DNA of 61,586 nucleotides, filler included, from Dimargaris cristalligena (GCA_003614675.1; 2 parts of 2 records of this genome joined end to end with filler, not necessarily neighbours in it), one strand, 5' to 3'; counted from the first letter of the whole stretch, positions 4,900 to 39,004 are shown. Notes: a model not told the origin generated them from the sequence alone. Numbers and translations: made by a program.

Positions 4900-7221
4900 T
4901 TATTTCCAAATCTCACTACGCAGACGCTGTAGTTCAGCGGCAACATCCCGTTCACCGGTCGGAGTAGCCGCTCCATTTGAGCCCGCCGTAGCCGGCGCGG
5001 CCCCCGTTCCCGTAGTTCCCGTAGCGGATTTCTTATCGAGCAGGGATTGGAAAAAATTAGCCACGATTTCGCGCTGGGCGGGCTGGGTTCCATCGGTGTT
5101 CATGGTAGCCATCGTTGGTGAGGCCGCTCGTCCCGTGGCGGAAGCGGAGTGGGTAATGCCGGCTAGGGTGAGATTACCACCATGGTGGCCACCGGTAGCC
5201 GAGTTAGAGCGTAGGAGACTGGCTAAGCCGGCCGCGGCCGCCGCTGATGATGACGATGCTGATGATGTCGCAGTCGAGGAGCCTATTGCCGATGACGAGT
5301 CCCGGATTTTAGTCATGCGCGCGAGTTTAGAGGCAATATCTTCACTAGATCCCGAAGCAGAGGCCGATGGCGCCGTTGTCGTTGTCGTTGCTGTCGCGGT
5401 CGCCGCCGCGAAAAGTGGGGGCTCAGACCCCAGACCACTTCCACCGGTGAGACTAAGCCCATTGGTGTGGGGAAGGGTCGGGGACTTGACGTGGGGCACA
5501 CCGAACTGGCCGCCATCATCACCCACGGTAGACAACGTATTGGTAGCATGGGCCGTTTTATCGCTCAGTGTCTGCTGGATATTCCGGTAGTGATATTCTA
5601 GGAATACTTGGTCGTCCTCCGCTTCCACTGAGGTGGAGACCGTGAAGCCCGAATCAGCGGTGGTGGGGTCGGGAATGACCTCGGCGAAGATACGCAGAGC
5701 ACTATCGGTCTGGCCCTGGATACCGCCATCGACATTCATGTCCGTCTCCGAAAGCGGGTTTCCGGTACTGCTGGACAACTCCTTGCCCGCCCGGCGGAGC
5801 TGAATATCCCGGTCCCAGCCATCGGCCATGGCCTGGCAATCGTAGCCTTCACGCAGGATTTGGATTTTGGCCCAGGAGTCCCACCCGGTCGGGACAAGCG
5901 CCCGGTCCCGCTCAACTACATCCGCGCGGTAGGGAAATGCGAATAATTTATGAGTACGATGGGGAAATAGCGCATTGGCGGCGGAGTTGCCTTGTGCCCC
6001 ATCTGCCGAGTCCGAGGCCGTGCCATCACCCCCCTCATCACCGTCGGCATGGTTATTTTCGGAGTCGGCGGCAGTCGTAAGCGATGCCACTGACGTGGGG
6101 TGGGTCAGCCGGTGTACGAGGTAGCGGTACACTTGGGTGAAGGTATCGGGCTGGCGCAGGGAGGTGTAGAATAGAGACGCGCCGTACTTGAGGCAAATGG
6201 TGCGCATGGTTTGCTGGACAAAGTCGAAATGATCCTCCTTATAGTCCTGTTCCCGTTCCAAGTTAGCCACGGCGTCGGCCTTGCAGCATACCACCACGAT
6301 CGGGATACCCAGATTCTCACTCAACGAGCCGGGGCCCAGGGGCAGCAGTACTGAATGGGCGTTATTGCTGCTGGCAGTCGTGGTGATGGGTGGCCGGGAG
6401 GGGGCATCACCAAGGGGGGTATGGGGTGTACTCGCCGAATTGGCTGCTATGGGCGTGGGTTCCGCATATTCCTGGGTGAAACGTTCCAAGCGTTCGCAGC
6501 ATTCCTCCAGAACCACCTTACCCTTGGTCCAACCGGACCCTCCTCCCCCTTTAGCAGTACTGGTGTGGCCCGGCGAAGCGGCCTTGATGCGCTCCACTAT
6601 ATTCTCTAGTACCAGAATCCATTTCTGGAGCTGGTCGATAAAGGTCCAGGGCCGGGTCCAGTCGAGCACAATCACAACGGCCGTTTTGGTCACCGTCTCG
6701 ACATTCAGGGCGTATTGGAGCAGCGCCTGGTAAGTGGCGTGGTCATCGGCCAACTGGTACACTCCCAACCGGGCTACGTCGTCCTGCTCGTCGTCCTTGA
6801 CATCAATGTACGAATAGCCCAAGGCCAGGTCGTTCGTGTGGGCAAGGCGACCATTCCCCGACGCATCGGTATTCCCGAGGTCGCCATCAGTGGAAGTTGA
6901 GGTAGCGGTAGTGGAGGTGGCCGTAGTAGCGGTAGTGGCAGTCGTAGCGGTCGAAATGGATGTAGTAGTGGTGGTTCCAGTGGATTTAGTGGTTCCGTCG
7001 CCGCCAGGCCCTAAGGCGGGATTGGGCTGGGCAAAGGCGTGGGCGGAGGCCAAGCGGAGTTGGTGGATGAAGGCGGATTTGCCACTATGGGGATCCCCGA
7101 GCACCAAGACGTGGGGATGTAGGGAGAGTTTAGACGACCCGACGCTACTTAAGATGTCCGACCACAGGTTGGTCGCAGGGGCGTCCGCCGGGGCGGTTTG
7201 GGCATCGGCAACGGCGGCCAT
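4900..7221 (-). CDS. Cytoplasmic dynein light intermediate chain (DLIC family)
   Basis: NLWSDILSSV, P-loop-like VLGDPHSGKS, LDWTRPW, NLGIPIVVVCCKAD, FDFVQQTMRTICLKYGASLFYTS, VPTGWDSWAKIQILREG and C-terminal VANFFQSLLDKK are all DLIC hallmarks. Confidence 0.93.
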   Translation of the reverse strand: MAAVADAQTAPADAPATNLWSDILSSVGSSKLSLHPHVLVLGDPHSGKSAFIHQLRLASAHAFAQPNPALGPGGDGTTKSTGTTTTTSISTATTATTATTATSTTATSTSTDGDLGNTDASGNGRLAHTNDLALGYSYIDVKDDEQDDVARLGVYQLADDHATYQALLQYALNVETVTKTAVVIVLDWTRPWTFIDQLQKWILVLENIVERIKAASPGHTSTAKGGGGSGWTKGKVVLEECCERLERFTQEYAEPTPIAANSASTPHTPLGDAPSRPPITTTASSNNAHSVLLPLGPGSLSENLGIPIVVVCCKADAVANLEREQDYKEDHFDFVQQTMRTICLKYGASLFYTSLRQPDTFTQVYRYLVHRLTHPTSVASLTTAADSENNHADGDEGGDGTASDSADGAQGNSAANALFPHRTHKLFAFPYRADVVERDRALVPTGWDSWAKIQILREGYDCQAMADGWDRDIQLRRAGKELSSSTGNPLSETDMNVDGGIQGQTDSALRIFAEVIPDPTTADSGFTVSTSVEAEDDQVFLEYHYRNIQQTLSDKTAHATNTLSTVGDDGGQFGVPHVKSPTLPHTNGLSLTGGSGLGSEPPLFAAATATATTTTTAPSASASGSSEDIASKLARMTKIRDSSSAIGSSTATSSASSSSAAAAAGLASLLRSNSATGGHHGGNLTLAGITHSASATGRAASPTMATMNTDGTQPAQREIVANFFQSLLDKKSATGTTGTGAAPATAGSNGAATPTGERDVAAELQRLRSEIWK

Positions 7222-7892
7222 GGTTGCGAAATATATATAGATACAGTAATATAGAAGGAAGTGGCTGATGAGAGAGATGTAGATAGGGGGAAGTGGAAAT
7301 TACCCAGAGTATAAAGTGAGAGGTGAATGCGGTAAAGACAGGCGATATTTCGGATGAGGTCAAGGGTGGTAGGAGGAACTATAAACTCCGAGTCTAAGGG
7401 AGGAGAGAAGGGGAGTGGCGAGGTAGAGCATAGGGAATTCAGAGATGCGAGCTGAGCCGGCCACAACGGGAGGGCTGAAAAAGAGGGCGTAGGAGATACT
7501 GCATAATTCCACCAATATTGGGAGTTGGCCCAAGTGATCATCCAGCAGGGGTCGCTGGCTATATTCTTCACATAAAAGCTGGTCACCACACAATGCATGA
7601 CCCTTTAAGTTCAAGGACCACCGCCAACGATCAGCTCGTAGGCCATTTGATTTGAACTCCCTAATATATCATAATTAGAGTTGACCCACATTAAATACCT
7701 ATCGAATATATGTTCTTTTCCCCCACAATTATACACTAATGCGGGGATTCAGCCGATACTTCGCAGGTACCAGTAAATCCAACATGGGCCGAGATGGAAC
7801 CGCTAATAAAAAGGACTATTTTTTTAATAACTAGTTCACTATTTCCAAACATATAATCGATTATACTCCACGACAAACTCTATTAACGACAC

Positions 7893-9405
7893 TTAACCAG
7901 CACTTAATGACGCCTCCGCCACGGTCGCCACCTTCGAACCCAAGGATTTCTCCAGCGGGTCCGTATACAAACGCAGGGCCATGAATCGGGCATCGACATA
8001 GAGAAACGAGTTCCGATGTTGCCTATGGAACCATTGCACCACATGCTCAAAAAACTGGGGTTCAGCCGCCCATCTTGCATAAATCATATTATACGCCATG
8101 GTCGTTTCAATATGGGCTCGGGAATACCCAACCGTCGTCAAGAGTGATACGAGGAACCCGGAGAGTTCGACGGATAGGTTGAGTTGATGGAGTCGAATAA
8201 TGAGCAAGTCGGCGGCTTGGACACGGCCGTGGGCGACGAGAACGGTCAAAATAACGTGAATGAGCGTTTGCCCGAACCCCACACACATGCCAGACCACGG
8301 CCCTGGTGCTGCAGTTGATCCAGTTCCGATTCCAGCGGCGGGTGGTGGTAGTGGGGCTCGAGTTGAACCCCGATCGCCCTGAAACAACGACCCCGGTGGC
8401 CGCATCACTTCCTTTAGAAATAGGCGTTCCCAGTGGGTCTCCACCCCCTTCTCCAACATCACCCCACAAACGGACTCCGTATCGGCCGCAGGACCGAACA
8501 GTTGGGTTAAAACCCGGGCCAGTAGCCCCACGTTTCCTATTTTGGCTAGATATAAAATTGGAAACGCCCGGACCCACTGACTAGGGTTCAGTTGAAACAG
8601 GTCGACGGCTTTCAGGGACTGCAGCAAGGTGAAGAGCTTGGCCGAGTCCGAGCGATAGGCCTTCTGGAGGTCGACGTTGGTTAAGAGTCGCTGCAATAGA
8701 TCGGATTCGGGGGCGAAGCTGAGATCAGTATAGCGAAGCGATACTATCTGACAAGCCATGATCCCGCTAACTTCAAACCGAAGTAGGTCTACAAGGGCTC
8801 TGGTGGGGTCCGGACCTTCAAGCGCTCGGCCTACTCGGGCGATGACCTAAATAGGCGTAACACAGAAGTTGGAAAAGGCTTACGGTTAATATTATTATAC
8901 GAGATACATATAATACCTCGATTACCAGTCAATAATTAACCGTTATGGTGAAATGGATGCCCCAAGTCGCTTGGATTGACTAAGGATCCATTTGCGATAA
9001 TAAGGTGTGACAGAACGGGAGGGGGGTAGCCGGGCCCATGTCTACAAGAAAAATAAATACACCGACATCACACGAAACATGTCCGCTACATGGGTTGTTG
9101 CTGGCGACTAATGTTTATAATACACATACCAATTTTTTTAGTCGTTTCGCATAGGGCCGGAGCAATGGTCCCTTTCCCAGACCCTTTTCGAGTTGATGGA
9201 TATCTCCGCCCGACAGATTATCCATAATATTGATCAGTAACTCCGTCGGCATATCACGAACGTTTCTTCGGGGAGACTGGAATGTTGAAGGAGTCGGGGG
9301 CATGTCCTTCTTGGGTGGCTCATCATAGGCAAACGAAGCCAAATTAAACACAATACCACCTGCCACAGTGGCCAAGACCCACCACCGAATGCTAACCGAC
9401 ACCAT
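7893..9405 (-). CDS. Putative secreted protein with F-box-like motif and degenerate ankyrin-like helices (exons 9405-9130, 8846-7893; about 409 aa)
   Basis: The GTATGT donor at 9129 and TTAG acceptor at 8847 are both phase 0 and join the 9405 ORF to the 7893-8759 ORF frame. Hydrophobic N-terminus WWVLATVAGGIVFNLASFA, then RDMPTELLINIMDNLSGGDIHQL. TATAAATA upstream at 9674-9681. Domain calls are by eye. Confidence 0.6.
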
Positions 9406-10550
9406 TATTGCGAAAGCTATGCTAGATTTTTTTACCGAAAATTATGGAGAATGCCTGGGATGGGGATAAGGAGAGGGGCGGTAGCTTGTTTGTGGCTAAG
9501 GTCAATTCTAATGCGCCTTTGAAGGAAAAGAAGAAGATCTGACCGCAAACCGAACGGGGGGTAATGAGTGATATAGACTAGTAACTTTCGAATGATGAGG
9601 TCTAAAGATGATTCGCAAAAATTGTAGACTCAAAATAGTAGTCTCCTCACAAATGAAGCAGGAACTGAGTCGGTATTTATACTTATACGCGTTTGGGGAT
9701 CCTTAGGCCCGGAGCATTGTGTCCATTGGGCCTCTTTATCAAAATATAAATTCAAGATTAAGTCCTATTGGGGTTGGGAAACGAAAAGGGGGGCTAGCCA
9801 ACTTCACTTGACTCCTTAAAAGTGGAATCAAGTACAGGTGCGTAATAGGGAAGTAATGTGCGCCAGTCGACTGAAGTGACGGGTGGTACAGTGCTACCAT
9901 AAAAACATACATTGTATATACTGACTCTGTGTATTTCGGACAGCCCTTTCTCTCCACAAGTAGGGCATTTCCCAGCTCTTCATTCACAACAGGAAATAAT
10001 CGGAAAAATATATTATTTTCATGGCAGATTGAGTTTGAGTAATTACACCCTCCATAAGGAAAAATACACTCGCCCGTCAGACCCCAAACCAGTGGGTAGT
10101 GAAGTAATCAAACCTATTGCAAATTTAATAGGGACCTACCCGCCCAACTATCATCAGCTAGGCCAGTTGACGTAAAAAAAACTCATCAAATTCTTCATGC
10201 TGGGCCCTGTTTAAGAGCACGAAGGATGTGCGTGTAAGGGATAAATCGGCGCTGTATACCCCAATTGCCTAAACGAAAAGAGGGAAAATACGAGTTCTCC
10301 ACCCCCCGTTTCGGGCACCGGTTCTACAAGTCAGTGTGGATAAACGTGCACCAGTTATGGCCGCGGGTTACCGCGTGTCTACCTCCCCTTCCCTCATTGC
10401 CCATGGTACACCAGCTGCCAGCGACTGGAATATGTTGTGGGGCAAAATGGGGAACAGACGAGATGGCAGAGACAATACGATGCATTTGGGTTTCTTTCCG
10501 GAACCATTGGCCAGAGTAGCGGCGGGAATAGACAAGTCGCAGGGGTTTCC

Positions 10551-10694
10551 ATATGGCAGAAGTTCATCCAGGCTGTACAACGAAACATCCATTGGATGAG
10601 GTCAATACTACTAGTTAAAAGCTATTCTCACATATATTTACCCATACACGTATTATGTAAAACCCTATACAGCTGGGTTGAAGTTCACCCATAT
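10551..10694 (+). mobile_element. 144-bp TIR element (MITE-like), copy 1
   Basis: ATATGGCAGAAGTTCATCCAGGCTGTA...TATACAGCTGGGTTGAAGTTCACCCATAT, with about 30-bp imperfect terminal inverted repeats. Aligns without gaps to the copies at 21608, 31613 and 41884. Confidence 0.85.
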
Positions 10695-11251
10695 TGTAGC
10701 AAAAATAGGCTACTGAGCCCCTCAGTTCATACCACTAGCCCTTTACTGGATCAACGGCAAGATTACAAACCGGCCATTCATCTTCGCAATAGGCACTTTA
10801 TTCTACGATAATTAATGGAATGGTAATTCCAGAAATTCAATGCCTGAGGGTTTGGTTAAACAGATAGGGTATTCGACTAGCAAGAGCCCTCATTATTTTT
10901 AACAGCCATTTATGGAAGTGATGCCGATCCGCCCACAAGACCTGCGTAAGTCCTATAGATACTAGGCGGTGGGATCGAAATCTAAATGCTGAGAGCGTAT
11001 AGGTGAAAAGCCCCCCTTCCTCCTCCTCCCAGTCACAGACGACTAATACCAGTCAGACTTTATGGGATTATCCCCCCCGCAAAGTATTATACAAGGTACT
11101 TTTTTATTATTAAACATTGATTCACTTTTGTTCCATACATTCCCTCCATTTCGACCACCCCCCTCTCCTTTTGGCCCTAATTTGCCCACCCCTCCGGGAT
11201 TCGCTAACCACCACCTCCCCTGCCGCTTGCTCTAATTGCTCTCCCCCCCTC

Positions 11252-21856: not shown

Positions 21857-24000
21857 TCATTCGTCTCCGCCATTAAGTTCAGCAAGTTGGGCCTTCTTCA
21901 TTTCCAGTTCACCCACCAATCGACCTAGAATATCCTCGAATCGTTTCTATATACACAGTTCAATAGGGATGGTATGTGGGTGATCGATAGAGGAAAATAT
22001 AAAATAGGAATAATGAGTATAACCGAATAGCCAGCAAATTAAATAATCCTAAGCGCAGCAAAGCGGGGGCGCTCAGTATACACGTCGGGCTTACCTTGAT
22101 GATTAAATTAGGGGCGGACTCGATTTCAGTCCGTTTCCGACCAATGGTGGTTTCTAATTCCCTGATTTCATCAGTCAGAAGTTTCTTTTCGACCGCGGAG
22201 CCACCACCGCCGTTTTCAGGACCGGATTCGTCCGATTCTTCATCGTCGCTTTCTTCCTCTTCATCTTCGTCGTCTTCATCTTCCTCGCCCTCTTCTTCCT
22301 CCTCGTCCTCCTCCTCCTCTTCTTCTCCTTCTTCGCCTTCGCCTTCTTCATCTTCACCCCCACCCCCTTCGCCATCCCCGTCTTCATCTTCATCCATTTC
22401 TTCGAGTTGCCGGCTGAGTTCGGCAGCTAGGTCCGAATCGTAGTCGTCTTCATCATCGGGCGCCGTAATGGGGTCGGTATCCGGGGGTTCGCTGCTGCGG
22501 GCATCGACAAGACCCATGGCCATATCCGATTCACTCATGAGATAATCCCGGACCAAGCCGGAATGTCCGCCTCCTCCTCCTCCTCCCCCTATGCCCATGC
22601 CGAATCCCAGTCCGCCCCCCTCTTGGGGATTGAATACCAGGTCATCGTCCGATCCATCCAGCTCGTCAATATCTCGGATTTCGTACTGCACATTCTCCGC
22701 CTGGGCATCCAGTTCGAGCAGCCGTTCGAGTTCCCGGTCGAGATTATCGGGTTTCTGTTTGGTCTCACGTTTGCGGAACCGGCGTTTACGGGCGTTTTTC
22801 ATGGGAGGAGTGATGCCATCGTTCCAGCGATAGGAGTCACCCAGTTGGGCGAGACCGGCTTTGGGGTCGGCGGAGGATTGAGGGGGTCCGACTACTAGCA
22901 TCTGTGGTATCAAAATAGCGGTTGCAGGAGTGGGATATTATAGTGCTCAGAGCTGTTAGTTAACGTATAACCTTGTAAAAATATACAAGATGGGGCGGGA
23001 TAACCTAGGAGAAAAATGTTGGGATGGGGGGGGGGTTAAGAATCATATGCCATGGACATGGTCCCCCATTTGATTACATATTTTCCCTTCCCTTCCCATT
23101 TTCTCCCCCATCCCGATTCTAAATAGATTAAGTCGGGATGCTTTACCTGGGAAATATCGGCGATTTTGAAGAGTTGGCGGTTGTCGAACGTTTTTTGGGA
23201 CTCTATTATACAGGGTAAATCCACCAGCGTCGTGGGATACGCCGTCTGGTCGATGGTGAAGGAGCCTTTCCGGGGGTCTTTGAAGTCGAATTTTACTTTC
23301 TCGAGGTCGGCATTCTGGATATGTTTGCGGAGACGGGCGGCGGCGTGGTGGTCCGTGACGCGAAGGATCACCTGTTGTTCACTGGCGACGTGGGGTTCAA
23401 AATCGTCCCCGCCTTCTTCGTCAGCTAACGCAGCGAGGCGGGCGTGACTAAGACGGGATCGACTGCCCCGCATAGAGCCGCGGGCCCGGCCCCGGCCCCT
23501 GACTCGACCCCGACTACTGGTGGTACCAGTGGTGGAAGGAATAGCGCCCGCGCCCCCACCCCGACTTCCCCGGCCCCGTCCCCGGCCTCTGCCCCGACCT
23601 CGACCACGTCCTCGACCCCGGCGGGGTCTATCGCGGTCGTATTCTAATCCGGTGAGAGGTGGATGCATATATAATGTCATCATGTAAGGTGCCGTCATAT
23701 TAATAGAGTGGTATACCGCTGGGAGCATCGCGCACCAAGGGGGAGAGGGACACAAAAGCCCCAAACACCCCGCTTTCCGCCTGGCGACCACGTATGGGTT
23801 TACTTTCCTCACCCTCTTCAGCGTATAGGTCTTAAATGGGGGGGGGGGGCTAGTGGGCAAGACTGCCTGTACTTACCGGGGGTATAGAGATCCATGGACG
23901 ATGGGTTCGGTGTGAGGCGAATGGTGACTCGTTCGGCCTGGGACCCTCCCATTGGGTCTTGGGCGCCTCCTGAATAGGTAGGGTTATAATTGTGGTCCAT
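21857..24000 (-). CDS. TAF7: TFIID subunit TAF7 (exons 24000-23877, 23643-23147, 22901-22095, 21946-21857)
   Basis: TAFII55_N signature EQQVILRV..YPTTLVDLPCIIESQKTFDNRQLFKIADISQMLVV and DGITPPMKNARKRRFRK. Acidic linker, then C-terminal coiled coil NLIIKKRFEDIL. All three introns are GT-AG and phase-consistent; the first exon is the least certain. Confidence 0.92.
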
Positions 24001-25185: not shown

Positions 25186-28100
25186 ATGTCCAGCGAATTC
25201 CTCTTCAATGCCAAAATTACCCGCGGCCTGAGCGACCGCCTCTACGAAAAGCGCAAGGCCAGTGCCTTTGAAATCGAGAAGTAAGTAGTATGGTTCAGTG
25301 TCCCTGGTATGTGCGCCGCCACCCAAGAGTCCCTCCTTTGGGTAGGCGGGTGGGAATGGTGAGCTAATAGAGCTGAGTCCCCCGGGACTTGGCTCAGCTC
25401 AACGGGCTACTTACTGTGGACTATCAGCTGGCTTTGTTGGTTTTCCCTTGGACTGTTGGAGCGACCATGGGCCAATAGTTTAGACCACTTCTTCCAGGAT
25501 ACTCGGACAATGGTGATAATGATGAAGATGGAGATGAAGGGTCAACCCCCAGGGTATCCTAGTTTACTTATTAAACCCCCTGATTTTCATTTATTGATTG
25601 GGACCATGCCACTGCCCACCCTCCTCTTATACGGGGTTTTTTGACACCGGTAGGCTTATCCGTGAGCAACTTGCCCAGAAGAATCAGGTTGGCGTGAAGA
25701 AAATCCTGAGCTGCCTCGTTAAGGAATTCGCCTATTCCCCGCAACCCTACACCCGCGGCGGCGGCTTAATCGCCCTGGCTACATCGGCCATCGCACTCGG
25801 AACGGTACGAATCTAAACATATCCATCGACGTGGTAACCTGTGTCACTCTGCTACCACCTATGTATCTTATGGTCAGCTTATGGCGGCCAGGTACTGTTC
25901 ATCCTCCCGCGATGTGGTGCTTGCCATCCTGCTGCTGCTTGGGTATTCACATTGCTTGATTATTCATCTTTTGCCGACCTATCCCTCCTCCAAACTCAGA
26001 ATGAGATTCGGTACTTTTTAGATGACATCGTGCCCCCGGTTCTGGCATGCTTCTCGGACCATGATACCCAGGTCAAGTACTACGCGTGTGAGGCCATGTA
26101 CAATATCGCCAAGGTGGCCAAAGGCGAAATCCTACGGTTTTTTAATGAAATCTTTGATGCTCTTAGCAAAGTAAGTGTTGGCCACTGTATACTACGAGTT
26201 GGTACAGCTAGTATTGATCCAGCACGCCTATCCCTAATTTCACTGTTTGCTGTTGTAAACCGATGGCGGCAGACCCATAAACGGGCCCTACTAAACCACT
26301 TTAGTGCTAACATTTACGCACTACTTACAAACATCCATACACCATCATATAGACCGCCGCAGATACAGACAAAACTGTCAAAAAAGGCACAGATCTGCTC
26401 GATAAGCTGATTATGGATATCGTTTCCGAAGAAGCTTCCACGTACGTGTCCATCGTCTCGGACATGGTGATGCCTACAACTAAAGGTAGCCAGCCTTCGC
26501 GCTCGGATACCGTGGAACGTATTGTGCAGCAACAGCAATCCGTTCTCGCCTTTTCTCTGGAGCGATTCATTCCCCTACTGACCGATCGGGTCAGCACCAT
26601 TAACCCCAATACACGGGTGTTCCTGATCAAGTGGCTCCGGGTTTTGGACTCTCTGCCTGACTTGGAATTGATCCACTATCTACCCAGGTTCCTGCGCGAA
26701 GTGTTTCTGTACCTAAGCGACCCGAATGAGGAGGTACGCACCATCACCGCGCTCCTGCTTACCGACTTTTTGGTGGAATTAAACCAAATCGCCCTAATTC
26801 GACCCCAACCAGACAAGCGCAATGCCCTGTTGCTTACCGCCACGAACGGGAGCGGATATACTGGTAAAGGGTCCGGAGCTCTTGATACCTTTGCGGTGAG
26901 TCCGAGGTCCCTATCTACGGTGGGCTCCCCGGCCTTGTCGGAAGCCCGGCCGTCCGGCATTACTAGCCCCCGACGCCCAGGACGTCAGCAGACATCAGTC
27001 GTTGATCAGGCCATCCCCCGGCTCTGTCTCGACCCCAATCAGCGTGGGGGCGTGGCTGCCACTGCGGAAGACCAGGCGTCCTTGGCCGAGGATTTGGCTG
27101 GTGCTATATCCGACCCACTGGTGCCCGGACCCGGCGAAACCGATGCCCGCATCGCCTGGGTGCCCCGCCAGACTGTCGAAGTGGACTTTGCCAGCCTGAT
27201 CCATATTATTAACGACCTGCTGAATTCATCCGACCATGATGTCCAGCACGCCGCCTTGCACTGGATCGCCAAATTCATTACCATGGTCCCGTCCGCCGTC
27301 GTCCCGTTCACCCCCAACCTTATCGAGCGGATCCTGCCATCGCTCTCCCACGAGAATGAAGCCATCAAGAAGGCGGCCGTCTACGCTAATGCCAAACTCT
27401 ACCACCTGATTCAGGATATACCCCTGGTAACCCCTCCCACACCGTCCCCGACTCCACTCTCCACCCCCGCCGCCCCACCCGCCGCTGAACCCCGCTCTCG
27501 TAAATCGCCCCCCGACAACGGTGACCCCCGGTCTCCCGTGAGTGATATCCATGAGCGGCCCATCTCTGGCGTGTCTTCCCCGCGACGCTCGGCCTCCGCG
27601 CTGTCCCAGAACTCTAATCGCTCGGCTTCCCAGTTAAGTCCCAAAGACCCCTCCTCACCGGCTCTGCCAGACCAACTCCCCCTCCCGCACCCAACGGGTA
27701 AAGCCTCCGCGGCCACATCCCCGCTGGCCTCCGTAGCCGTCGTCCCGGACGGGGAATCTGTTGGCGATCGGTCGCCCACGGCTAAATCGGACGGACCTGC
27801 TGCTCTTTCCACCGAAGCCACAGCTGGGGAACAGTCCAGCCCCACGGCCAAGTCCGATACCTCCATGCTCGCCACGGTTCCCCAGGATCCGTTTAATCTG
27901 GCCAGTACCGTCACGACCCTGATCGTCACCTACTCCAACGGGCAGGAAGAGACCCGCATTTCCTGCGTGGACTGGCTCCTCATGCTCCACCGTAAAGCTC
28001 CCCTCCGGATGGCCAAAGAGGAAACCCTAGTATCGAATGACGGGTCGTTCCCGGTGTTCCTTAAAATCATGTCGGATCCCTCCGAAGAAGTGGTCAAGAA

Positions 28101-29826
28101 GAACCTCCAACTCCTGGCCCAATTTTCGGCCTACCTGGATACGGAGTATTTCCAGCGGTTCATGGTGAAACTCCTCGAACTCTTTAGTACCGATCGCCAA
28201 CTCCTGGAAACCCGGGGCAGTCTCATCATCCGCCGGCTGTGCGTCAGCCTCAATGCCGAACTAATTTACCGCACCATTGCCGAAATCTTGGAAACCAACG
28301 AGGATCACGAGTTTGCCAGCATGATGGTACAGAACCTTAATACCATTTTGGTGACCTCTCCCGAACTAGCGGAACTTCGGCACCGCCTCAAATATTTGGA
28401 CACCAAAGACAGTCAGCTCCTGTTCGCCACCCTCTACCGGTCGTGGTGCCACAGTCCGGTGGCGACTTTTACCCTCTGCCTGCTCGCCCAGGCCTACGAA
28501 CACGCCGCGAATCTACTCCCGATTTTCGCCGAAATGGAAATGACCGTGGCCCTATTAGTGCAGGTGGACAAGCTGGTCCAACTCATCGAATCCCCCGTGT
28601 TCACTTATTTGCGGCTCCAACTCCTGGAACCGGACCGGTACCCTTACCTGTACAAGTGCCTGTACGGCATTCTCATGCTTCTACCCCAGAGTAGTGCGTT
28701 TAACACCCTGCGGAGTCGCCTCCATAGTGTGAGCGCCCTGAGCTACTTGCACACAGCCCGGTTTCATACCGAATTGGGAGGCGGTATAGGAGGTGGCGGG
28801 TCCCCGCTGGGTTCGGCCGTTAATTTATCCGCGAGTAGTGGTATATCGGGCATGGGTATGGGTGGAGGAGGAGCTGCAGTTGGCACAGGGGCCGGTGGGT
28901 TATCCGGTGGTTTGGGGGGAAGCGGTAGCGGTTCAGTCTCGGGGATTCCGACCGGCAGCGGGATCGGGGTTGGACCAGGTAAACGATCCAAAATGCTGTC
29001 CTCATCCCATCCACCCACCCTGGCCCAGGCCGCGAGTGCGGGCCATGCCTCGTCGAGCCCGGTGCCCGACCGCAACAATGATCCCATCAAATTTAATGAA
29101 CTATTGATCTATTTCCGGAACATGCAGCTCAAACACGCCAAGTTCTTCCAGTCCCAAGGTAAGGCCTCGCGGCTAATTAGGATCGCCGTCCTTCTTAATG
29201 TACCACATGTTTGGACCATTATTGAACCACAATGATAATACTTGGACTAGTCGCCGGAGCTGATACAGTTTCGGGTGCTTTATTATCAGGTTTATTATTA
29301 AGAAATAAGTATTTCGTGAGGTTAAGGCAAACTGCTAGGTGATCCTTATTTATAATTTGGTGTGTTTGATATCGCTGAACATTCTGAACTAACCCCTTTT
29401 CCACCCCTTTAAATTTACCATCTAGATTATCCGTTAGGTCGGGACCCCTCAGCCACGTCTTCATACCGGATGTCCGATGGCCCAGGTTCGACCAACCGTC
29501 CCCCACACGGACCCATCAGCGGCGGTATCTCCCGACCGCATTACTTATCCTCACTCACCGTTACCGGCCCGGACGATTACCATAACCAACCACTCCATCG
29601 CCGGTCCAGTGGGTCGCCGGGCCTCTATGGAACACGGGGTCGTTCGCCTTCCATCCTAGGGTCGGGTTCCAGCAGTGGTGGTGGCAATTATAATATTAAT
29701 AATAATAATACCAATTCCAACGCTAATCTTTCGGGGCAAACCACAGCGACCAGTAGTACCCGCACGACTCGGGGGCCTTTAGGGCCGGCTGTCAAGGCCA
29801 TTCGCCGGACCATTGGCAAACGTTGA
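25186..29826 (+). CDS. VAC14: PI(3,5)P2 regulatory scaffold Vac14 (exons 25186-25280, 25654-25804, 26000-26170, 26353-29158, 29426-29826)
   Basis: RGLSDRLYEKRKASAFEIEK, RGGGLIALA, Fab1-binding region VKYYACEAMYNIAKVAKGEIL, and Fig4-binding region LYRSWCHSPVATFTLCLLAQAY and DKLVQLIESPVFTYLRLQLLEP. Introns are phase-consistent. Confidence 0.96.
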
Positions 29827-30595
29827 AACTAGCTCGGATATCCTCTTGGACATTACCGGCAATTTTTATTAAACCATATGCGCCCCCCCCCCCTCTCTTC
29901 GCCTCTTCATTATGTTGAGCCTTGGCTTTATTGAGTTTTCATCATCCCCCCTCCCTATTGTCATCACTCACCCCTCCATCACCCCTTCCATTACATTACA
30001 TTTTTGGCATCCTTTACTTACCTTGCTTTACCCAATCCCCGATCATTTCAATCTATTCCATGGCAATTATTATAATTTATCAATTCCAACGAATATACCT
30101 CTATACGGGCTTGGATTAAGTGCTGTTGTTCAGGTGGTCTATGCGAATATCAATCAGGTCTTCAATCCAATATAATAGGCTACCGCGAAACCATGAGGAT
30201 ATATAGCGGTTTCAATAGCACTAGTTGTTTCTAGGTAGCGCACTAAAAATACCCGGAATAACTAGCTAAAATCGGGGCATTACACCATGGTGTTATTACT
30301 GAACCATGCGCATGTATTGAGTAAAACTGCCAAATAAACCCAATATTAGAGAGTGCCGTATTCAAACAATCCAGATTTACGTGCTTAGATGAATGACTTA
30401 TCCCTTACAAGAGAGCATTAGATCATAATATTTAATATATGTATATATATATATATATATGTACTGACGTCGAGTTCCGATGAGGTATCACAATTCAATT
30501 GTGGTCCCACACTGGTAATTGTAGATTAATCGGTCATTTTTGTAAGATCACTATTTGTTTTTCAGTGTGAGTCCATCAGCAACCCATAGTAGTCA

Positions 30596-30764
30596 ATATG
30601 GGAGAAGTTCAATCAAGCTATATAACGATTTGGATGAAAGTTCCAATTGATGTAGCGGGACTATTTTTTTATCGAAACGGGAAATAGGTAGATCGATGGG
30701 ACTTTTTTTAAAAATGTGGGAAAAATGATCCCCGACCCTGTGATCAATCATAAGACCTATAATA
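30596..30764 (+). mobile_element. TIR element copy 3 (diverged, contains insertions, runs into the gap)
   Basis: ATATGGGAGAAGTTCAATCAAGCTATATAACGA, then an insertion of about 8 nt and AAAGTTCCAATTGATG..GGACTA matching the consensus. The right end is lost at the N-run. Confidence 0.65.
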
Positions 30765-30864
30765 NNNNNNNNNNNNNNNNNNNNNNNNNNNNNNNNNNNN
30801 NNNNNNNNTTAATTAATTAANNNNNNNNNNNNNNNNNNNNNNNNNNNNNNNNNNNNNNNNNNNN
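30765..30864. other. Artificial gap linker: N44-TTAATTAATTAA-N44
   Basis: Exactly 100 nt. The central palindrome puts stop codons in all six frames, a known contig-joining spacer design. Confidence 0.95.
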
Positions 30865-31612
30865 AATGTCGTACTCGCCCATTTCCACCTGCTCTGTGCC
30901 CTATGAGTAGATACGCTGGTTGCAGGCTCAACGTTCTGACCGAAAGGTTGTTTAGTAATGTTAGAATTATTATGAGTATAGTGGTAAGAGATAATTTACT
31001 GCTGGAATGGTAAATTCGATGGTAAACGTAAGTGCCTTCAGATACAACTAAAATGATTTAAAGAAGAGAGAAAGAACCGCAAGGGGCAAGGCCAGATGCC
31101 CGCGGTTGGTTTTATTGAGTTGGAAATACCAGTAATGATGATAAAAAACGTTGTTCCGAGTATAGGATGATATAATCATAGATATAGTATAGTCCCGAGT
31201 ATAGGACAGACCAATCAGAATGATGGAATCGGTGGGGCGGGAGAAATGAATTTCTAACAAATACTCAGGTATTTGTATGGTTAGTGTCAATCTGATATAT
31301 ATATAGTGCTCCATAGTGTATGATTGGGGAAAGCTTGTATTATTTATTTTATCTGGTATAATCATTTCTGAACCTATCCATACTGTTACAAAAGAGGTGC
31401 TGTCACTGACCCCAATGGAGTATTATATATCGCCTCCGAAACTGTGGGTGGAAAATACCCCGCCAAACCAAAAACCAGTCAGATAGCAGAGGCCATCAAT
31501 GGCGAAGGGCCTTCACTGATGATCACGTGGACACTCCCTGGTTTCACAGTCAGGCTTATTTAAACCCACCAATAGTGTTTACATAATGGGGAGAGCGGCC
31601 TTGAGAATGAGC

Positions 31613-31756
31613 ATATGGGTGAAATTCAAACCAGCTGTATAAGGTTTTACATAATACGTGTATGGGCGAATATATGTGAGAATAGCTTTTAACCAGTAAT
31701 ATTGGTCTCATCCAATGGATTTTTCACTATACAGCCTGAATGAACTTCTCCCATAT
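31613..31756 (-). mobile_element. 144-bp TIR element, copy 4
   Basis: Full reverse copy with about 15 substitutions and no indels versus copy 1 (hand alignment). Confidence 0.85.
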
Positions 31757-32332
31757 GGATAACCCTGAGATTGGTCCCAACTGCATTGTCTGTTTCTATA
31801 ATAATGACATTTTGCTCCCAAATATTCTAATAAAATTAAAGTGTAAGACTGTTTTCGAATGTATACCTCTTAAAGTAATCACCTGTGTATAAAAAGGGAG
31901 GTATACACGAGGGTAAAGACAAAAATAATCAGGATTTCTTTGGTACATAATTATTGGTATGACCTTAGATATTTATGTGACATATTTAATAAGGTATTTA
32001 TTACTCATTAAAATCACCATGGCCCAATTTTCCTGATATCGCTCAGCCTCTCCGCGACAGACCGAGGCATCGCCATTTTCTCAATATTTCCAACCTCCAT
32101 TCCCAGCGATATCCAGACGTCTTCGACCTACATCCATCTTTAAGACCACTTTCTTAAGAGCTTTTAGTGCTGGTAAGATAAGAGATTGCATCCATGCAGT
32201 TATATATTATTTAGATTCGCTTGATATATAAAAAGTATTAAAAGATAGGGTAGAAAGTCCGGTTGATTAAAAATAATTGGTAAATAGGCGAGCTGCGCTG
32301 CCTAGAAATAAATTCAGTGCCTAATGGGTGCA

Positions 32333-33884
32333 CTAGGCGGGTAAAATAACTGAGTGAATATCTAGACTCGTTGATTTCTTTTCCGAGATGGATCCATCGG
32401 GAATGATAGTTGGGGAAGAGGTCGGAGAACTGTGGCATTGGTAAGCATACATGATCAATATGTATCATAGGTATTGCGTTAGTTTCAAGCAGGGTCTAGA
32501 CATTGACATTCAGAAGGATGGCTATCCGTATATTGCTACATAATAAACTATATCAAGTTATAATAAATTACCTCATGTCCTTCGATTCATAGTGCTGTGA
32601 GTCGGGTAGCTTGCTAACCGAAAGGCCTAGGGAAACGAAACCCAGCATGACAGCGGAAATAGTTATAATTCCTTGATACCGGTAATCCACGCCGGCCGCA
32701 TCGATATTCCAGGCAATGGTACCGCCGATGGCCTGCCAGGCAAGGAACGCCCCCGTCATCATGGACACCTCCGACGTGTCTGAAGTAAAGCAACCAATCA
32801 GCCAGAATGCGGTCATGTTCAGCCCGATATCGATGAAGCCCCACACGACAAAAATGGGCCACACGGCCCAGTAACGGCCTTCGCTCAGGTCCATGTAAGG
32901 CGATGGCTCGTCAGGCGGATAGTGCCATTGGACCTTGAGGGCGCCGATCCACGAACCCACCAAACACACCACTAGAATGAGGGTGGCCACGGCCCCGCGC
33001 CGCTTTACCGTCCAGGTCGGCTTATCCAAGAGATGCCCGTACACCAGACTGGCGACAATGGATGATAGACGGTAGAACATGAGGTTAGCGCCCCGGCTAC
33101 GGATGCTGAAGAGCGAACCGTTGTAACCGTTGAATTGGTAGGGGGCCTGCCATTGGGTGATAATCATGTACGGTGCGGCGAGTAACATGCGACGGTTGAG
33201 AAAAGCTCGGCCTAGCGCCATGAGTTCGGCCCGCCAGCCGGGGAAATGAACGTGTTGAACGTGGGTTTGGTCACTTCGCCGCACAGCCTCGGCCGGGACC
33301 AGCAGGACCGTCAGGGCCAGACCAATGACTGCCAATACGATGAAAACCACGTAGGTGGGCGCGGTAAGACCCCGGTTTTCCATTTGAAAGTTTAGGCCAA
33401 GGGCAATGGCCCCTGCGATTACCCCACTCAGCGAGTACATGACGTGGAAAAAGCCCAGGGACATGCCCTTGGAACCCTCCCCTGGGTAAGTCAGGCTAAA
33501 TAAACCCTGGGTCGTCCACATAATCACCGTGCCAAACCCGACCAACGCACCCGAAGCAATCACGAAACCGCTGTTCTGGATCTGCGTATAAGCCAGTAGG
33601 GAACCGGTGTAAAGGGCGAAAGGGACACCCGATATTACAGTTGATAAACGGGGGCCTAGGTAGTTGACAATACCGCCCGCGAAAAAGCCGAAAAAGGCCG
33701 CCGTGGCATTGACCGCTAGGTTAGAATACGAAGCAGCGGCAAAATTATCTTGACCGCCACCACCTATCGTGGTAATGGCGATGTACATGCCATAGGTGAA
33801 AAGGATAATAACCGAGAGGATAAAAATTTGGAAGTCGGCGTCGTGAATCTTGCGGCCAACACGGCCTGGGAGGGAGAGTGACAT
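32333..33884 (-). CDS. MFS transporter, UNC-93-like/DUF895 family (exons 33884-32572, 32429-32333)
   Basis: About 12 hydrophobic segments, with family-type motifs GMYIAITTIGGGG and FFGFFAGGIVNYLGPR. A GTAATT donor at 32571, branch ACTAAC and CCACAG acceptor add the tail SSPTSSPTIIPDGSISEKK...PA*. Confidence 0.85.
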
Positions 33885-35653
33885 GGTCGAAATACTGATA
33901 CCATAAGTATGTAGACACTAGGCAAAGAACAGTTGGTCCAGCGGAGTATGGGGGAGTGTGGTTGCGTTGGAATTGCGGGATAAAGAGAATTCTGACCCTG
34001 TAAAGAGTTTGAAACCAAAACAGTCCCTGAATGAATACTGCCGATATAAGACTCACAAAATAATCGGTTTCACCCGAGAACTACTACAAATTAAAACTAG
34101 AGGGAAATTAGCAATGCAGAAAAGGCCATTAGGGTGGCTACTAGTCAAGTTATAAGAACGGCGGATTTAATAACGGGGGTGAAAAAAAAAGAGAAGGAGA
34201 GTAAGAGATAACTGAATCCGCGGTTTTGGGTGGATAGTGAAAATGGGGATCCGGAGCCCACCAATAATACGCACCCCACTGCTTGGTTGAAGCCCATAGA
34301 AAACATAATATACATTTGCGTTGCAAGCGAGCCAGCACAACTAACTACCTTCTCCATTCGGGGGAGAGATATCGGATGTTTTCGTGAAGCGAAGAGGCCA
34401 ACTGGTCAGCGTGAATAGCCCAATGTGAAAAAAAAAGTAAGGAGGAAGGCATCCGATGATCGAGTGCGACAAGACAGGGGAAAAGTGGCGGGTTTTACAG
34501 GCAAGCTTAGTTATTGCCCATTTCATAAACTGAAGACCAAAGTACCGGCATTCTTAACCAGTAGTCACTCTCTCGTTAGATAGCACTTAACATATATGAG
34601 TGGCGACGGAATTGGTTGCACCAGTCCCCTCCTCCCTTGATTAGCCGGTATGAGAGTTTTATACCCGCTGGTGTAACTAATTGGCATGTGCTGGTCAGCC
34701 AGACCCCCGATTGGCCGGTTCAGAAGAGAAGCTAGAAATGAATTGCCGCCTTAAACAGACAACGAAATATGTTCAACCAAACAGCTAGTATACCTCCCTC
34801 TGTCTTATGCTATCATTGCACTTTCCATAATTCCAACCAATTTAATGACCGCTTTATTTAGCAATCCTTTGGTTCAACCGCTCCGAACCAGGTGGATATT
34901 TCCTAATTGGAGAATTCCCCGGTCAATAACGCCATACAGGGTGCCGGTATCCTGGTTAGTGCATATGCACTCAACGACAGCAATTAAGCAAGGGGCGGGA
35001 TGTGAAGTTCAAGACAGGCGTTCGGCCAGGCCCCTGGGGTTGTTTGGCTCGGTATCTGAAAGCCCTGCTTCAGGCTTATTAGACGCTGGTTTATGATTCA
35101 TTCATCTGGATCCAACTTGATCTCTCCATTAAATACACAGTAACAATGCGGGAGTATTATGAATGGATCCCAAGTTCCAATACCCGATTGATACACATAT
35201 GGATTTTTAGGCAGTGGGGGTAGGTGAGCCACAGGTAGGAGCTGGGGAGACCATAGGTATGAAGGGTGTAAGGGGTTCCTACTACCAGTGATGTTGGGAA
35301 TAAGGGGGGGGATTACAATGTGATACTAAACAATACTACTAATTAATACTGAACTGGCAATCTCAAAGAACCAGGGTTAGAATTGACTGCTACATTAATA
35401 GATCAGTAGTTTCGTTAGTATTTGTACTACACCATGAAGAGCAAAAGTTGCTGTTAGATTGCAATATCGGCAATATTGACCAGAGGTTTATCATGGTTTA
35501 ATTGGGGGCAATCCTTTATCTCGAAATGAGGTATTATAATAACAATGCAGCCAAGGTTATCATTCTTATATAAATTAAGTTAGAGTGTGGGTGGGTATGA
35601 GCTGATATTTGAATATTGTATATTCTTAGTTTGATATGGATAATAAAGCAAAC

Positions 35654-36788
35654 TGTTACCCAGGTTTACCACTCTTAGTCTGTCAACAGTCCTGAGGATA
35701 GGCTTCTAATGGTAGGTGGGGCTTAGACCCAGCCAAGTGGACTACTAGCATTAGGATGGGAGCACAGTACTATCTAATAAAGGATAAGTGCAGGTATATG
35801 TAAGGGATATGCAGTAAGTACACTTACTAGTTAGTACAAGGGGGTGAGTATATATAGAGTTTATTGGGATTGTTACCTGGGTTAACCACTCTTAGTCCAT
35901 CAAGAGTCCTGAGGATAGGCTTCTAATGGTAGGTGGGGCTTAGGCTCAGCCAAGCAGGCTACCAGTATTAGGGAGGGGTCAGTACTAACCAGTAAAGGAT
36001 GAGTGCAGGCTAATGCAAGGGACGTGCAGCAGGCACACTTACTGGCTAATACAATGGGTAAGCATATAAGGAGTTTATTAAGGTAAACATGGGGGTAAGA
36101 AAATAAGCTAAGGAACTGAACCGGTCCCAGAGGGGCCCAGTTATTTATACATGGGGACTGCTCATAGTGAGGGGTCCTTAAGAGCAATGAGATGACTAAA
36201 GAAGAGCTGAGGGTTGGGCCTCACCCAGGGGGCTTACATCCGGAAGACTCCACTAAGAAAGGGGTAACATTGGATCAGCTGGTGGAGTATTGCATAAGAA
36301 ACATTGGGACCTGGTCATAGTGGGTTATATAGTTGAGGGAGGAGTAATATGGCACTATAAGGTGATAGGATAGGACAGTCAGTGTTCCATATTTAGGAAG
36401 GATTAGGTGGGCCGATAGGGATAAATAGGGGTAGGAAATAAGCTAAGGAATTGAACCAGTCCATAATGGGGCCCAGTTATATATATGCAGGGACAGCTCC
36501 AAAGGGAGGTCCTAAGGGAAATGCTACTAAGACTAAGGTATAGATAGATATATAGGCCGACCAGATGGCTTCATATCTAGAAGACTCTTATGGGAACTGG
36601 AAGACTCTTTTAGATCATTAGTTGAGTGTTTTGTATAAAGTATTGGGGCCAGAAGGAGATGGGTTATATACTGAATGATGATCCCAGAGTACCGGGGGTA
36701 ACTATGGGAGGGTTAATATGGTGCTATAAGGCTTAATAAGGGCAGACAGTCATTAAGTCCAGATTAAGTCAGATTAGGAGGGCTGATA
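35654..36788 (-). mobile_element. Degenerate solo LTR (outer), split by an insertion; pieces 35654-35870 and 36423-36788
   Basis: The two pieces align in order to the inner copy and share its termini (TGTTACC ... GG(C/T)GATA). No PBS, PPT or coding sequence is adjacent, and no clear TSD was found. Confidence 0.7.
35871..36417 (-). mobile_element. Solo LTR (inner, 547 bp) flanked by a GGGAT 5-bp target-site duplication
   Basis: GGGAT occurs at 35866-35870 and 36418-36422. Termini are TG...TA (probably CA mutated to TA). On the minus strand TATAAATA (36142-36149) precedes AATAAA (36074-36079), the U3-R-U5 order of an LTR. Confidence 0.75.
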
Positions 36789-38281
36789 AATATCAATAAC
36801 ACATAAAGCAGCAAGTGGCATCAGAATCAGTCATTACTGTGGTAAAAGGCTTAACCATGATTAAATAAATCAGTGTTCAGTTTTAAAAAGATCGAAATAA
36901 AGAGGGCCCAGTCAATTATTATTATTTTTCCCCTTGGTGGGGGCTACAGGCAAACTATTGTATAGCACCCTACTGGTGGAACAAGTGGCGTCCCTGGGGT
37001 TGTATGGGGTAGGATTCTCCCCCATATAAGCTTCGGAGCCCAATGCTCTGGTAAAAGGGACCCTCCACCTAAGCAGTGGTAGTAGGACAGGCCAACCATA
37101 TGCCATCCAGAAGATGGCTAGATAATGGCTTTCGTCTGAATTTTCCTTTCATTTGCACAAGCATGGTGGGTTGGATTTCCAAGGTCGAACACCCTTCTAT
37201 AAAGGGATGGGTATACTGTTACAATGACCACCTCAATATATAATTTATATTATCATCACTCTATCTTGGGGCAGATTGGGTTGCTACCGCCCCCTGTATT
37301 ACGTTTGCTTTTTGTATTAGCTAGCTGGTGAAAATGGCAGGTCTGGGCCAATAGGGGGGGCAGTATTACCAGTATTACCAGGTGGAGGAAATTAGATAAG
37401 TACTGATATAATTATATTTAACCATAGAGAACTCAGGACGTCATGCAATTCTTTAATGTTCTTTACCCCAAAGTCCATTTGTAGGGCAGATTGGGCCAGT
37501 AATCATTCGCTACCTGCTCGACAGTGCCTTCTCACCTGGGAGGTCAAGTGATGGCCCCATTTCAAGGGGAGTGGTCTTCACCCTGCGGTTACCTGAAAAT
37601 CAATTATTGTTTGGCTGACCTATACCTCATTGTTTCGTGGCTGGCATTCCCGGTGTTTATTTCTATAGGTACGGTTACACCGAGGCGCGCGCTTTCACTC
37701 CGCTTCTCCCCTACCACGTAATATAATTGACCCGTAGTTATATCTGCGTTGCTGTCTTAAGCCTGCACACACGCTAAGCCATGTACAATAGTTCTGGGGC
37801 TACAGAACCCCATCATGATATTAATGTTCCAATTGTCAATTAAAGCCATCATTTCAAGCCCTTCCACGCCATTTTATTAATATATATATTCTACATAAAG
37901 TTTGAAGTGCTGTACCACCAATGCTATGAGAATATAAACCAACTTTGGTGTAGCTATAGTCGCATGAATGAATCGTTTCCCCGCCACCATGCCAGTTGGA
38001 AAAAAAAGGCGATAAACCCATTATTGGCGATTTTCATTATTAAGCAAGTGATTTGTGTAAACGAATAAATATCCAAAACGGCAGACAGGTTAACAGACTA
38101 CCACATGATCGCCGAATATAAAAGCCTGCCATGTCGCAGCTCTACAGGTGCATTATTAAATTTTAATTCAGTGACGTTGTCTACTTCTCACCCACCCACC
38201 CATTACTTCACCAGCACTGTATTTTCAATCACAGAGTTATTGCCCCTCGGTCCACCCACCACTTACCTGCCATCATTTACC

Positions 38282-39004
38282 ATGTTCGTAAACTCTTTAG
38301 GTCTGCTGATTTTGGTTAGCATCGCCTTAGTATCAGGTCAGCCTGTACCGATAGATGGCCTATACCCCGATGGAGATACCTACCAAGCTGATTCGAACGA
38401 CCTCGGATATTGTGCCCAATTATCCACCGACGCATCCGATATCCTCGCAACCACAAATGGCTATTTGCATTTCTGCGGGTGGGAAAGCCAGGCCCTTACC
38501 ACCCAGGATATTAACGGCTATTTCGCGTTGTCGGTGGGTCTGGGTTTGCTGGAGGAAGTACACACCATGAACTCGGAGAGAATTATTTCCTTGCCTCCCT
38601 TTACCGGTCCAGGCACCTACCCCCACCCCGACACGGGTTCGCCCCTAACCCCCGAATTTGCTTGTGAAACGCGCCAAATCTTCCTTCGCCAAATTTATGC
38701 CATGGAGAATTTCGAAAGTGGCTTATTCAAGCAAGATATCGAACCCATGTTAGAGAAGTACCATGACTTGGGTGCCCACCCCTTCGTGGCCCTGCCAACC
38801 GTATCCCCCACAATCCCCCGCTTCCTGGTCGTGATTCACCAAGACCCGACCTCCAGTCGGGTGGATATTAATTTTGTGTTCGATTATTTGAAGGATAACT
38901 GCCAAGACTTTCCGGGACATGTAGGTAGGGCCACAGCCTTCAACCAGCCCCAGTTTATTTTAGCGGACTCGATCGCCGGTATTACTCTCAACAGCTTAGT
39001 GTAG
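38282..39004 (+). CDS. Secreted protein of unknown function, paralog A (240 aa)
   Basis: Signal peptide MFVNSLGLLILVSIALVSG. TATAAAAG at 38117-38124 implies the ATG at 38282 rather than 38105. Intronless and aligns with 40870-41586. Confidence 0.8.
   Translation: MFVNSLGLLILVSIALVSGQPVPIDGLYPDGDTYQADSNDLGYCAQLSTDASDILATTNGYLHFCGWESQALTTQDINGYFALSVGLGLLEEVHTMNSERIISLPPFTGPGTYPHPDTGSPLTPEFACETRQIFLRQIYAMENFESGLFKQDIEPMLEKYHDLGAHPFVALPTVSPTIPRFLVVIHQDPTSSRVDINFVFDYLKDNCQDFPGHVGRATAFNQPQFILADSIAGITLNSLV

Follow-up and report, generated by a model that had tools for sequence, protein, structure and literature searches.

A candidate SCF adaptor with a hydrophobic leader and a divergent F-box-like motif in the mycoparasitic fungus Dimargaris cristalligena

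To our knowledge, nothing is known of how haustorial mycoparasites of early-diverging fungi control their hosts. A two-exon gene of Dimargaris cristalligena raises this question, since its product carries a hydrophobic leader in front of an F-box-like motif: does this protein leave the cell to act in another fungus, or does it serve the cell that makes it? The gene lies on the minus strand of a stretch of 61,586 nucleotides (GCA_003614675.1; two parts of two records joined end to end with filler), which is referred to here as the window. A preliminary description of this DNA had read the product as a signal peptide followed by an F-box and ankyrin-like helices, and had proposed an effector that hijacks the Skp1-Cul1-F-box (SCF) ubiquitin ligases of a host. 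Judging by its sequence features, the protein is most likely a substrate-selecting subunit of an SCF ubiquitin ligase. Rather than a proven secreted effector, we tentatively favor an adaptor that works in its own cell, membrane-tethered or cytosolic, although our confidence in this location stays somewhat below even. The proposed 409-residue protein would be all-helical: behind its short hydrophobic leader would come a linker rich in Pro, the divergent F-box, and C-terminal helices that hold the substrate. Docking on Skp1-Cul1 would fall to the F-box, while the helices behind it recruit a target for ubiquitination. The leader would either stay uncleaved and anchor the ligase in a membrane, at the surface of an organelle, or resemble a signal only by chance. 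Skp1 binding, membrane topology, and the site of action are what we infer from these features.

The interval that had been singled out, 7893..9405, corresponds to the bounds of the minus-strand coding sequence, and all the strings quoted in the preliminary description were located there. The spliced product of 409 amino acids is letter-for-letter identical to the database protein RKP37758.1, which is recorded as 'hypothetical protein BJ085DRAFT_41390' of Dimargaris cristalligena and labeled 'F-box domain-containing' in UniRef. Exon 1 translates as MVSVSIR-WWVLATVAGGIVFNLASFA-YDEPP..., and further on reads ...VRDMPTELLINIMDNLSGGDIHQL. Near the N-terminus, the first-helix motif of the F-box, L-P-x-E-[IL]-L-x-x-I-x-x-x-L, is matched by MPTELLINIMDNL (residues 52-64). 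The pattern [LM]P.E[IL]L..I...L, which was picked after the match had been seen, occurs once in the 123,168 six-frame residues of the window, and 200 residue shuffles gave a mean expectation of 0.03 for the loose pattern and 0.0 for the strict one. The Pfam search of exon 1 returned PF00646 as the sole family, with an E-value of 0.22 and 12 bits against a gathering cut-off of 20.5 bits. PF12937 (F-box-like) was not reported in this search of exon 1, and a Pfam search of the whole 409-residue protein at E<=10 gave no family.

Comparisons in the ESM Atlas point in the same direction as the motif. For residues 40-115, each of the seven feature rows listed is a cluster with F-box in its name or annotation, the highest score being 0.89, and the best feature neighbor of the whole protein is an Ascomycota F-box cluster at 0.90; scores of about 0.9 are attained by 4-10% of shuffled proteins according to the tool's own statement, and both are read as leads. 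Among the structure rows for residues 40-115, F-box families appear in eight of the ten clusters listed, with template modeling (TM) scores of 0.49-0.57, a measure that by the tool's statement has little meaning for short stretches. The AlphaFold2 (AF2) single-sequence model of the whole protein predicts helices at residues 54-62, 66-76, and 83-101, which are not trustworthy at its predicted local distance difference test (pLDDT) value of 40.7. Helices 2-3 of the F-box are unmatched by the profile; the sequence after the motif, EKGLGKGPLLRPYAKRLKKL, contains no Trp and is Gly-rich (GLGKGP). A conserved Trp region belongs to the canonical F-box consensus. No F-box chain was found in PDB sequence searches with the whole protein or exon 1; the whole protein gave two chance-level matches only (SpaP, E=0.067; ChlI, E=0.7), and exon 1 gave none. 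We consider it probable, on the motif and its neighbors, that the residues from about 51 onward form a real, divergent F-box. The F-box of the preliminary description is borne out in its motif, which exceeds the shuffled expectation, and in its ESM neighbors; as a complete domain it falls short, with a score under the Pfam cut-off and a match to half of the profile.

The protein appears to be an orphan, with no detectable paralogue or orthologue among deposited sequences. An exhaustive phmmer search over 1.84 billion cluster representatives at E<=0.001 returned only the protein itself, and so did word-index searches in which exon 2 or residues 40-115 (E<=10) served as the query. These searches gave no expanded paralogous family resembling that of the Hessian fly SSGP-71 effectors, and the second member of the cluster is the same gene in the other D. 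cristalligena annotation. This orphan status is to be set beside the small number of sequenced relatives of Dimargaris, for which a fast evolution of rRNA sequences has been described (PMC6784888). Further assemblies of Dimargaritales, from Dispira, Tieghemiomyces, and D. xerosporica, belong to Reynolds et al. (2023). On a separate matter, the second-best feature neighbor of the whole protein in the ESM Atlas is a Nucleocytoviricota cluster (0.89), and, according to a 2026 paper, no non-zoosporic fungus other than D. cristalligena shows a match to a giant-virus capsid protein (PMC13533422). A giant-virus origin of the gene is unlikely due to its housekeeping neighbors (dynein light intermediate chain (DLIC), LSM, TAF7, and Vac14) and host-like codon usage.

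The coding potential was scored by a codon log-ratio trained on five conserved genes within the window. Exon 1 scored +0.163 in frame and -0.57 and -0.51 off frame, and exon 2 scored +0.195 in frame versus about -0.55 off frame. As held-out controls, six conserved open reading frames (ORFs) gave 0.03 to 0.48; the ORF at 10344..10808, which is open and unassigned, gave -0.289, and the intron and both flanks were negative in every frame. The GC content is 0.39-0.41 in the flanks and intron (0.41 in the intron) versus 0.49-0.55 in the exons. The start codon of exon 1 is the first ATG past an in-frame upstream stop, and the GTATGT donor is placed exactly where the open frame of exon 1 ends. A second D. 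cristalligena annotation, KAJ1984568.1 (427 amino acids), contains the identical 409 residues with the same exon junction. This is a real-looking two-exon gene, coding-like in both exons. The main text of the D. cristalligena genome paper contains no occurrence of 'transcriptom', which makes it probable that the two gene models were predicted ab initio. The two annotations also differ at the C-terminus: KAJ1984568.1 has Tyr in place of the stop TAA of the window, followed by 17 more codons that match the 3' flank (7839..7895, minus strand). Behind this 18-residue extension is either a stop codon that is polymorphic among isolates or a difference in sequencing.

Signal peptides are recognized by their n-, h-, and c-regions and by small residues at positions -3 and -1 of the cleavage site. 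The hydrophobic leader ending ASFA|Y, as it had been described earlier, shows this anatomy when read by eye, with a candidate cleavage site at A26|Y27 (A-S-F-A|Y). Its hydrophobicity is marginal, with a Kyte-Doolittle 19-residue mean of 1.57-1.62, and the most hydrophobic 19-mer of the protein lies elsewhere, at residues 279-297 (1.96). The 27 leader codons have a log-ratio of +0.34, compared with a mean of 0.204 for 185 held-out coding windows; this value is reached by 10.7% of 1173 stop-free off-frame windows, and the codon log-ratio weakly suggests that the leader is translated. The whole protein contains three Cys residues and two N-x-S sequons, at N63 and N315. One of the sequons, N63-L-S, sits within the F-box helix, where it would risk glycosylation in the endoplasmic reticulum (ER). 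A mitochondrial presequence was rejected by eye, as the leader holds one basic residue only.

The product of exon 2 is best described as a helical C-terminal region of unknown fold. Pfam searches of exon 2 and four sub-segments at E<=10 gave no family (no WD40, LRR, Kelch, or other module), and the AF2 single-sequence models contain helices only, with pLDDT values of 40.7 for the whole protein and 40.9 for exon 2 and no residue reaching 70. Two segments of this region, FPILYLAKIGNVGLLARVL and ILTVLVAHGRVQAADLLI, had been taken for degenerate ankyrin helix pairs, and by eye they do recall the ankyrin helix-turn-helix consensus. The strings are present, and the ankyrin reading of them did not hold up. 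Neither exon 2, nor the whole protein, nor any of the four sub-segments matched a profile of the Pfam clan Ank at E<=10. The alignment score between the two segments is 15, which was reached by 905 of 1000 shuffles. Within residues 93-409, the best internal off-diagonal alignment scored 37 versus 28.75 +/- 5.2 for shuffles, 7 of 100 of which reached 37, and no significant tandem repeat of about 33 residues was found in the C-terminal 317 residues. In the ESM Atlas, ankyrin clusters appear for the whole protein only at ranks 15-29, with lead-level scores of 0.83-0.85. The features of the gene and its product are collected in Table 1.

Table 1. Coordinates of the gene parts and protein segments, counted from the first letter of the window
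Feature	Position	Strand	Details
Exon 1	9130..9405	-	92 codons; ATG 9405..9403, A at -3, G at +4
Intron	8847..9129	-	283 nt, phase 0, donor GTATGT, pyrimidine-rich tract, acceptor TAG
Exon 2	7893..8846	-	317 codons (8846..7896) and stop TAA at 7895..7893
Hydrophobic leader, residues 1-26	9328..9405	-	n-region MVSVSIR, h-region WWVLATVAGGIVF, c-region NLASFA
Pro-rich linker, residues 27-50 (YDEPPKKDMPPTPSTFQSPRRNVR)	9256..9327	-	Low-confidence model shows no secondary structure
F-box-like motif, residues 51-71 (DMPTELLINIMDNLSGGDIHQ)	9193..9255	-	A complete F-box would extend to about residue 100, across the intron
Segment FPILYLAKIGNVGLLARVL, residues 187-205	8508..8564	-	Called ankyrin-like in the preliminary description
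Pro/Gly-rich linker, residues 241-275, probably disordered	8298..8402	-	No secondary structure in either low-confidence model
Segment ILTVLVAHGRVQAADLLI, residues 291-308	8199..8252	-	Overlaps the hydrophobic 19-mer 279-297

The biology of the organism bears on where such a protein would act. Dimargaritales parasitize Mucoromycota and some Ascomycota by means of an appressorium and a haustorium (PMC9866270). D. cristalligena is a haustorial, biotrophic mycoparasite, in agreement with the earlier guess of a fungus-on-fungus setting, which had been made from the DNA alone. It has also been grown axenically on supplemented medium (Ahrendt et al.). Its predicted secretome comprises 815 of 7456 proteins, or 10.9% (Chang et al., 2022; PMC9391592). 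The identifier '41390' is absent from the 11 supplements of that study, which give orthogroup counts and not protein identifiers. Table S6 of the same study lists two predicted-secreted PF12937 orthogroups (OG0000176 and OG0000338) as Mortierellomycotina indicators; there, F-box-like orthogroups stand beside RhoGAP, Hsp70, AAA, and Sir2, and an Ank_2 group is given for Zoopagomycotina (PMC9391592). In such pipelines, signal-like N-termini are common on intracellular domains and are not bound to parasitism. With PF12937 orthogroups among the Mortierellomycotina secretomes, an F-box protein may carry an N-terminus of this kind and still not be exported, which weakens the argument that a secreted F-box is only useful in another cell. 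Mortierellomycotina are mainly saprotrophic and not known for parasitism. The papers searched yielded no effector for Dimargaris and none that joins Dimargaris with an F-box, and no mycoparasite F-box effector appeared among the matches listed.

Several features lead us to favor an adaptor in its own cell. The gene is single-copy, with no paralogue in the 1.84 billion representatives, in contrast to the reportedly expanded families of validated secreted F-box effectors. F-box-like orthogroups are predicted to be secreted in Mortierellomycotina, the leader (1.57-1.62) does not exceed an internal helix (1.96) in hydrophobicity, and the N63-L-S sequon falls in the F-box helix. There is also a precedent for organelle-associated F-box proteins in yeast Mdm30, an endogenous F-box adaptor acting at mitochondria, that is, at an organelle surface (PMC3578726). 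Other observations weigh against this preference. The leader has the anatomy of a textbook signal peptide, with a single Arg and a 13-residue h-region containing Gly-Gly. The charges of its flanks, +1 before and -1 behind the hydrophobic stretch, predict a cytosolic N-terminus with the remainder translocated, which would fit export and disfavor a cytosol-facing tether at the ER. The summed membrane-insertion scale for the leader is +2.66, which suits a cleavable signal more than a stable anchor. The PF00646 match stays under the Pfam gathering cut-off (12 versus 20.5 bits) and spans only positions 3-23 of the 43 in the profile, its first half. Haustoria lie within host hyphae (PMC9866270), the expected site of delivered effectors. 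The hypothesis of the preliminary description, spelled out for this fungus, is the rival reading: the leader would be cleaved, residues 27-409 would be secreted from the haustorium, and the protein would enter the cytoplasm of a Mucorales host, dock on host Skp1, and direct host proteins to ubiquitination. We regard this route as unlikely. It accommodates the signal-peptide-like n/h/c anatomy, the -3/-1 rule, and flank charges favoring translocation, together with a probable F-box (the Pfam lead, the ESM neighbors, and the motif count), and it suits a biotrophic mycoparasite with an appressorium, a haustorium, and 815 of 7456 proteins predicted to be secreted. SSGP-71 and Rhizophagus clarus NLS_30765 are precedents for it. 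Orphan status and fast evolution are common among effectors, and Skp1 is highly conserved in fungi, to which an F-box from a parasite would hardly have to adapt. The same hypothesis has to face a single-copy gene without family expansion, a count of only three Cys, the sequon at N63 within the F-box helix, and an internal 19-mer (1.96) that beats the leader in hydrophobicity and could stop transfer in the translocon. Comparable predicted-secreted F-box-like groups occur in the mainly saprotrophic Mortierellomycotina. Pfam counts give 7-43 F-box proteins per fungal genome, and with tens of them per genome, one false signal-like N-terminus is about what chance would provide, as an estimate and not a computed value. 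That the protein is the first fungus-on-fungus F-box effector, a signal peptide plus F-box adaptor delivered via the haustorium into Mucorales hyphae, seems rather unlikely to us. Were it so, the near identity of Skp1 between the two fungi would let the delivered adaptor plug into the host SCF and mark host proteins for destruction.

Both of these readings take the F-box as functional. The protein may instead have no functional F-box and be a lineage-specific helical protein, secreted or membrane-bound, in which MPTELLINIMDNL only mimics the first F-box helix and whose function is unrelated to SCF. This is distinctly unlikely in our judgment. The 12-bit score against 20.5, the unmatched profile positions 24-43, the unreported PF12937, and the empty search of the whole protein are what such a protein would give; a GLGKGP-rich sequence follows the motif, with no counterpart of the conserved Trp of the consensus, the PDB searches at E<=10 yielded no relative beyond chance-level matches, and the ESM scores of 0.89-0.90 fall in the range reached by 4-10% of shuffled proteins. 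These observations stand against the nearest named ESM clusters for residues 40-115, all of which are F-box, against a motif that occurs once where 0.03 is expected, and against the UniRef label F-box domain-containing. An artefact of the gene model would undermine the leader itself, with the true start downstream at M35 or M52 and the leader in the 5' untranslated region, or with the exons as separate unspliced units. The model is probably ab initio, since 'transcriptom' does not occur in the main text of the genome paper. At 283 nt, the intron exceeds in length the candidate 182-nt intron of Vac14 in the same window, and the acceptor AG simply belongs to the stop codon bounding the exon 2 ORF. 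Such an artefact is nevertheless very unlikely. The leader and the F-box motif share one uninterrupted exon, M1 is the first ATG in a good context, and the leader codon log-ratio of +0.34 exceeds the held-out coding mean of 0.204. The consensus GTATGT donor falls at the end of the open frame with a pyrimidine tract ahead of the acceptor, GC and coding signal fall within the intron, and the two annotations agree on the junction.

The neighboring genes supply some context on gene structure in this window. The adjoining downstream gene at 4903..7299 (minus strand) encodes a dynein light intermediate chain (PF05783, E=4.7e-67), with long Thr/Ala/Ser-rich low-complexity inserts at both ends. Vac14, with its Fab1-binding and Fig4-binding regions, is split across two overlapping ORFs at 25838..29232 (plus strand). 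Its candidate intron at 26171..26352 (182 nt, phase 0, GTAAGT...TAG) is similar in design to that of the F-box-like gene, and in both genes the acceptor AG lies within the stop codon bounding the downstream ORF. TAF7 (TAFII55_N; 21963..23872, minus strand) is also split across two ORFs. None of its 33 frame-compatible GT..AG pairs has a GTATGT or GTAAGT-type donor after filtering, which suggests a less canonical donor or a more complex gene model. Between Vac14 and a gene for an MFS transporter, the region 30001..32000 has a GC content of 0.355 versus 0.43-0.57 elsewhere in the window, and no tandem repeats were found in 29000..32600. The region 34000..49000 also has a lower GC content (0.43-0.47). 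It contains ORFs of 232-311 amino acids (starting at 38069, 40852, 42408, and 47668) without a Pfam family at E<=0.001, and one of them, 38069..39001, has a coding-like codon log-ratio of +0.221.

The observation of the preliminary description holds except for its ankyrin part, and its interpretation is plausible but unproven and less novel than stated. If the interpretation were true, an SCF adaptor supplied by the parasite would be an economical solution, as both fungi have the same ubiquitin machinery, and host targets could be sought through it. Should the protein prove to be an ordinary membrane-tethered adaptor or to carry a mis-called signal peptide, it would be a useful warning on computational secretomes, which routinely include intracellular domains such as F-box, RhoGAP, and Hsp70 (PMC9391592, Table S6).

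Canonical F-box proteins (PF00646/PF12937), such as the SCF adaptors Skp2, Cdc4, and Mdm30, share with the D. cristalligena protein a helix of the form [LM]-P-x-E-L-L-x-x-I-x-x-x-L near the N-terminus and, C-terminal to it, a region for protein binding. The D. cristalligena protein differs from them in its sub-cut-off score, in the unmatched second half of the domain, and in the hydrophobic leader placed in front; its C-terminal region also has no recognizable module and the protein has no relatives. Legionella AnkB is likewise an F-box adaptor supplied by a pathogen, in that case exploiting the SCF of its host. However, AnkB is bacterial, is injected by the Dot/Icm type IV system and not by the ER route, and has bona fide ankyrin repeats, none of which are detectable in the D. 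cristalligena protein.

Closer to the present case are fungal candidates. Rhizophagus clarus NLS_30765 is a secreted F-box-like effector candidate that was proposed to interfere with host SCF signaling (PMC4746824). The new class of fungal effector envisaged in the preliminary description has in it a candidate-level precedent in print, which takes away part of the claimed novelty. NLS_30765 and the orthogroups OG0000176 and OG0000338 resemble our protein in being fungal, in being called secreted by secretome pipelines, and in having an F-box-like domain. They differ in that they reach Pfam significance (2.8e-07 for NLS_30765) and form orthogroups, and they are not detectable homologues of it. 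All three are likewise candidates, none of them validated. The SSGP-71 F-box-LRR effectors of the Hessian fly are said to be secreted and to form a large expanded family. They are the validated eukaryotic precedent, with a demonstrated interaction with host Skp proteins (PMC4617103). Whereas the F-box and LRR of SSGP-71 are detectable and its Skp interaction has been shown, the D. cristalligena protein is a singleton with a sub-threshold F-box and no LRR, known from sequence alone. The order of the parts is shared, from a leader to an F-box to a repeat or helical region for target binding, and so would be the proposed logic of host F-box mimicry and host Skp binding (PMC4617103). SSGP-71 belongs to an insect parasite, whereas here a fungal parasite would meet a fungal host.

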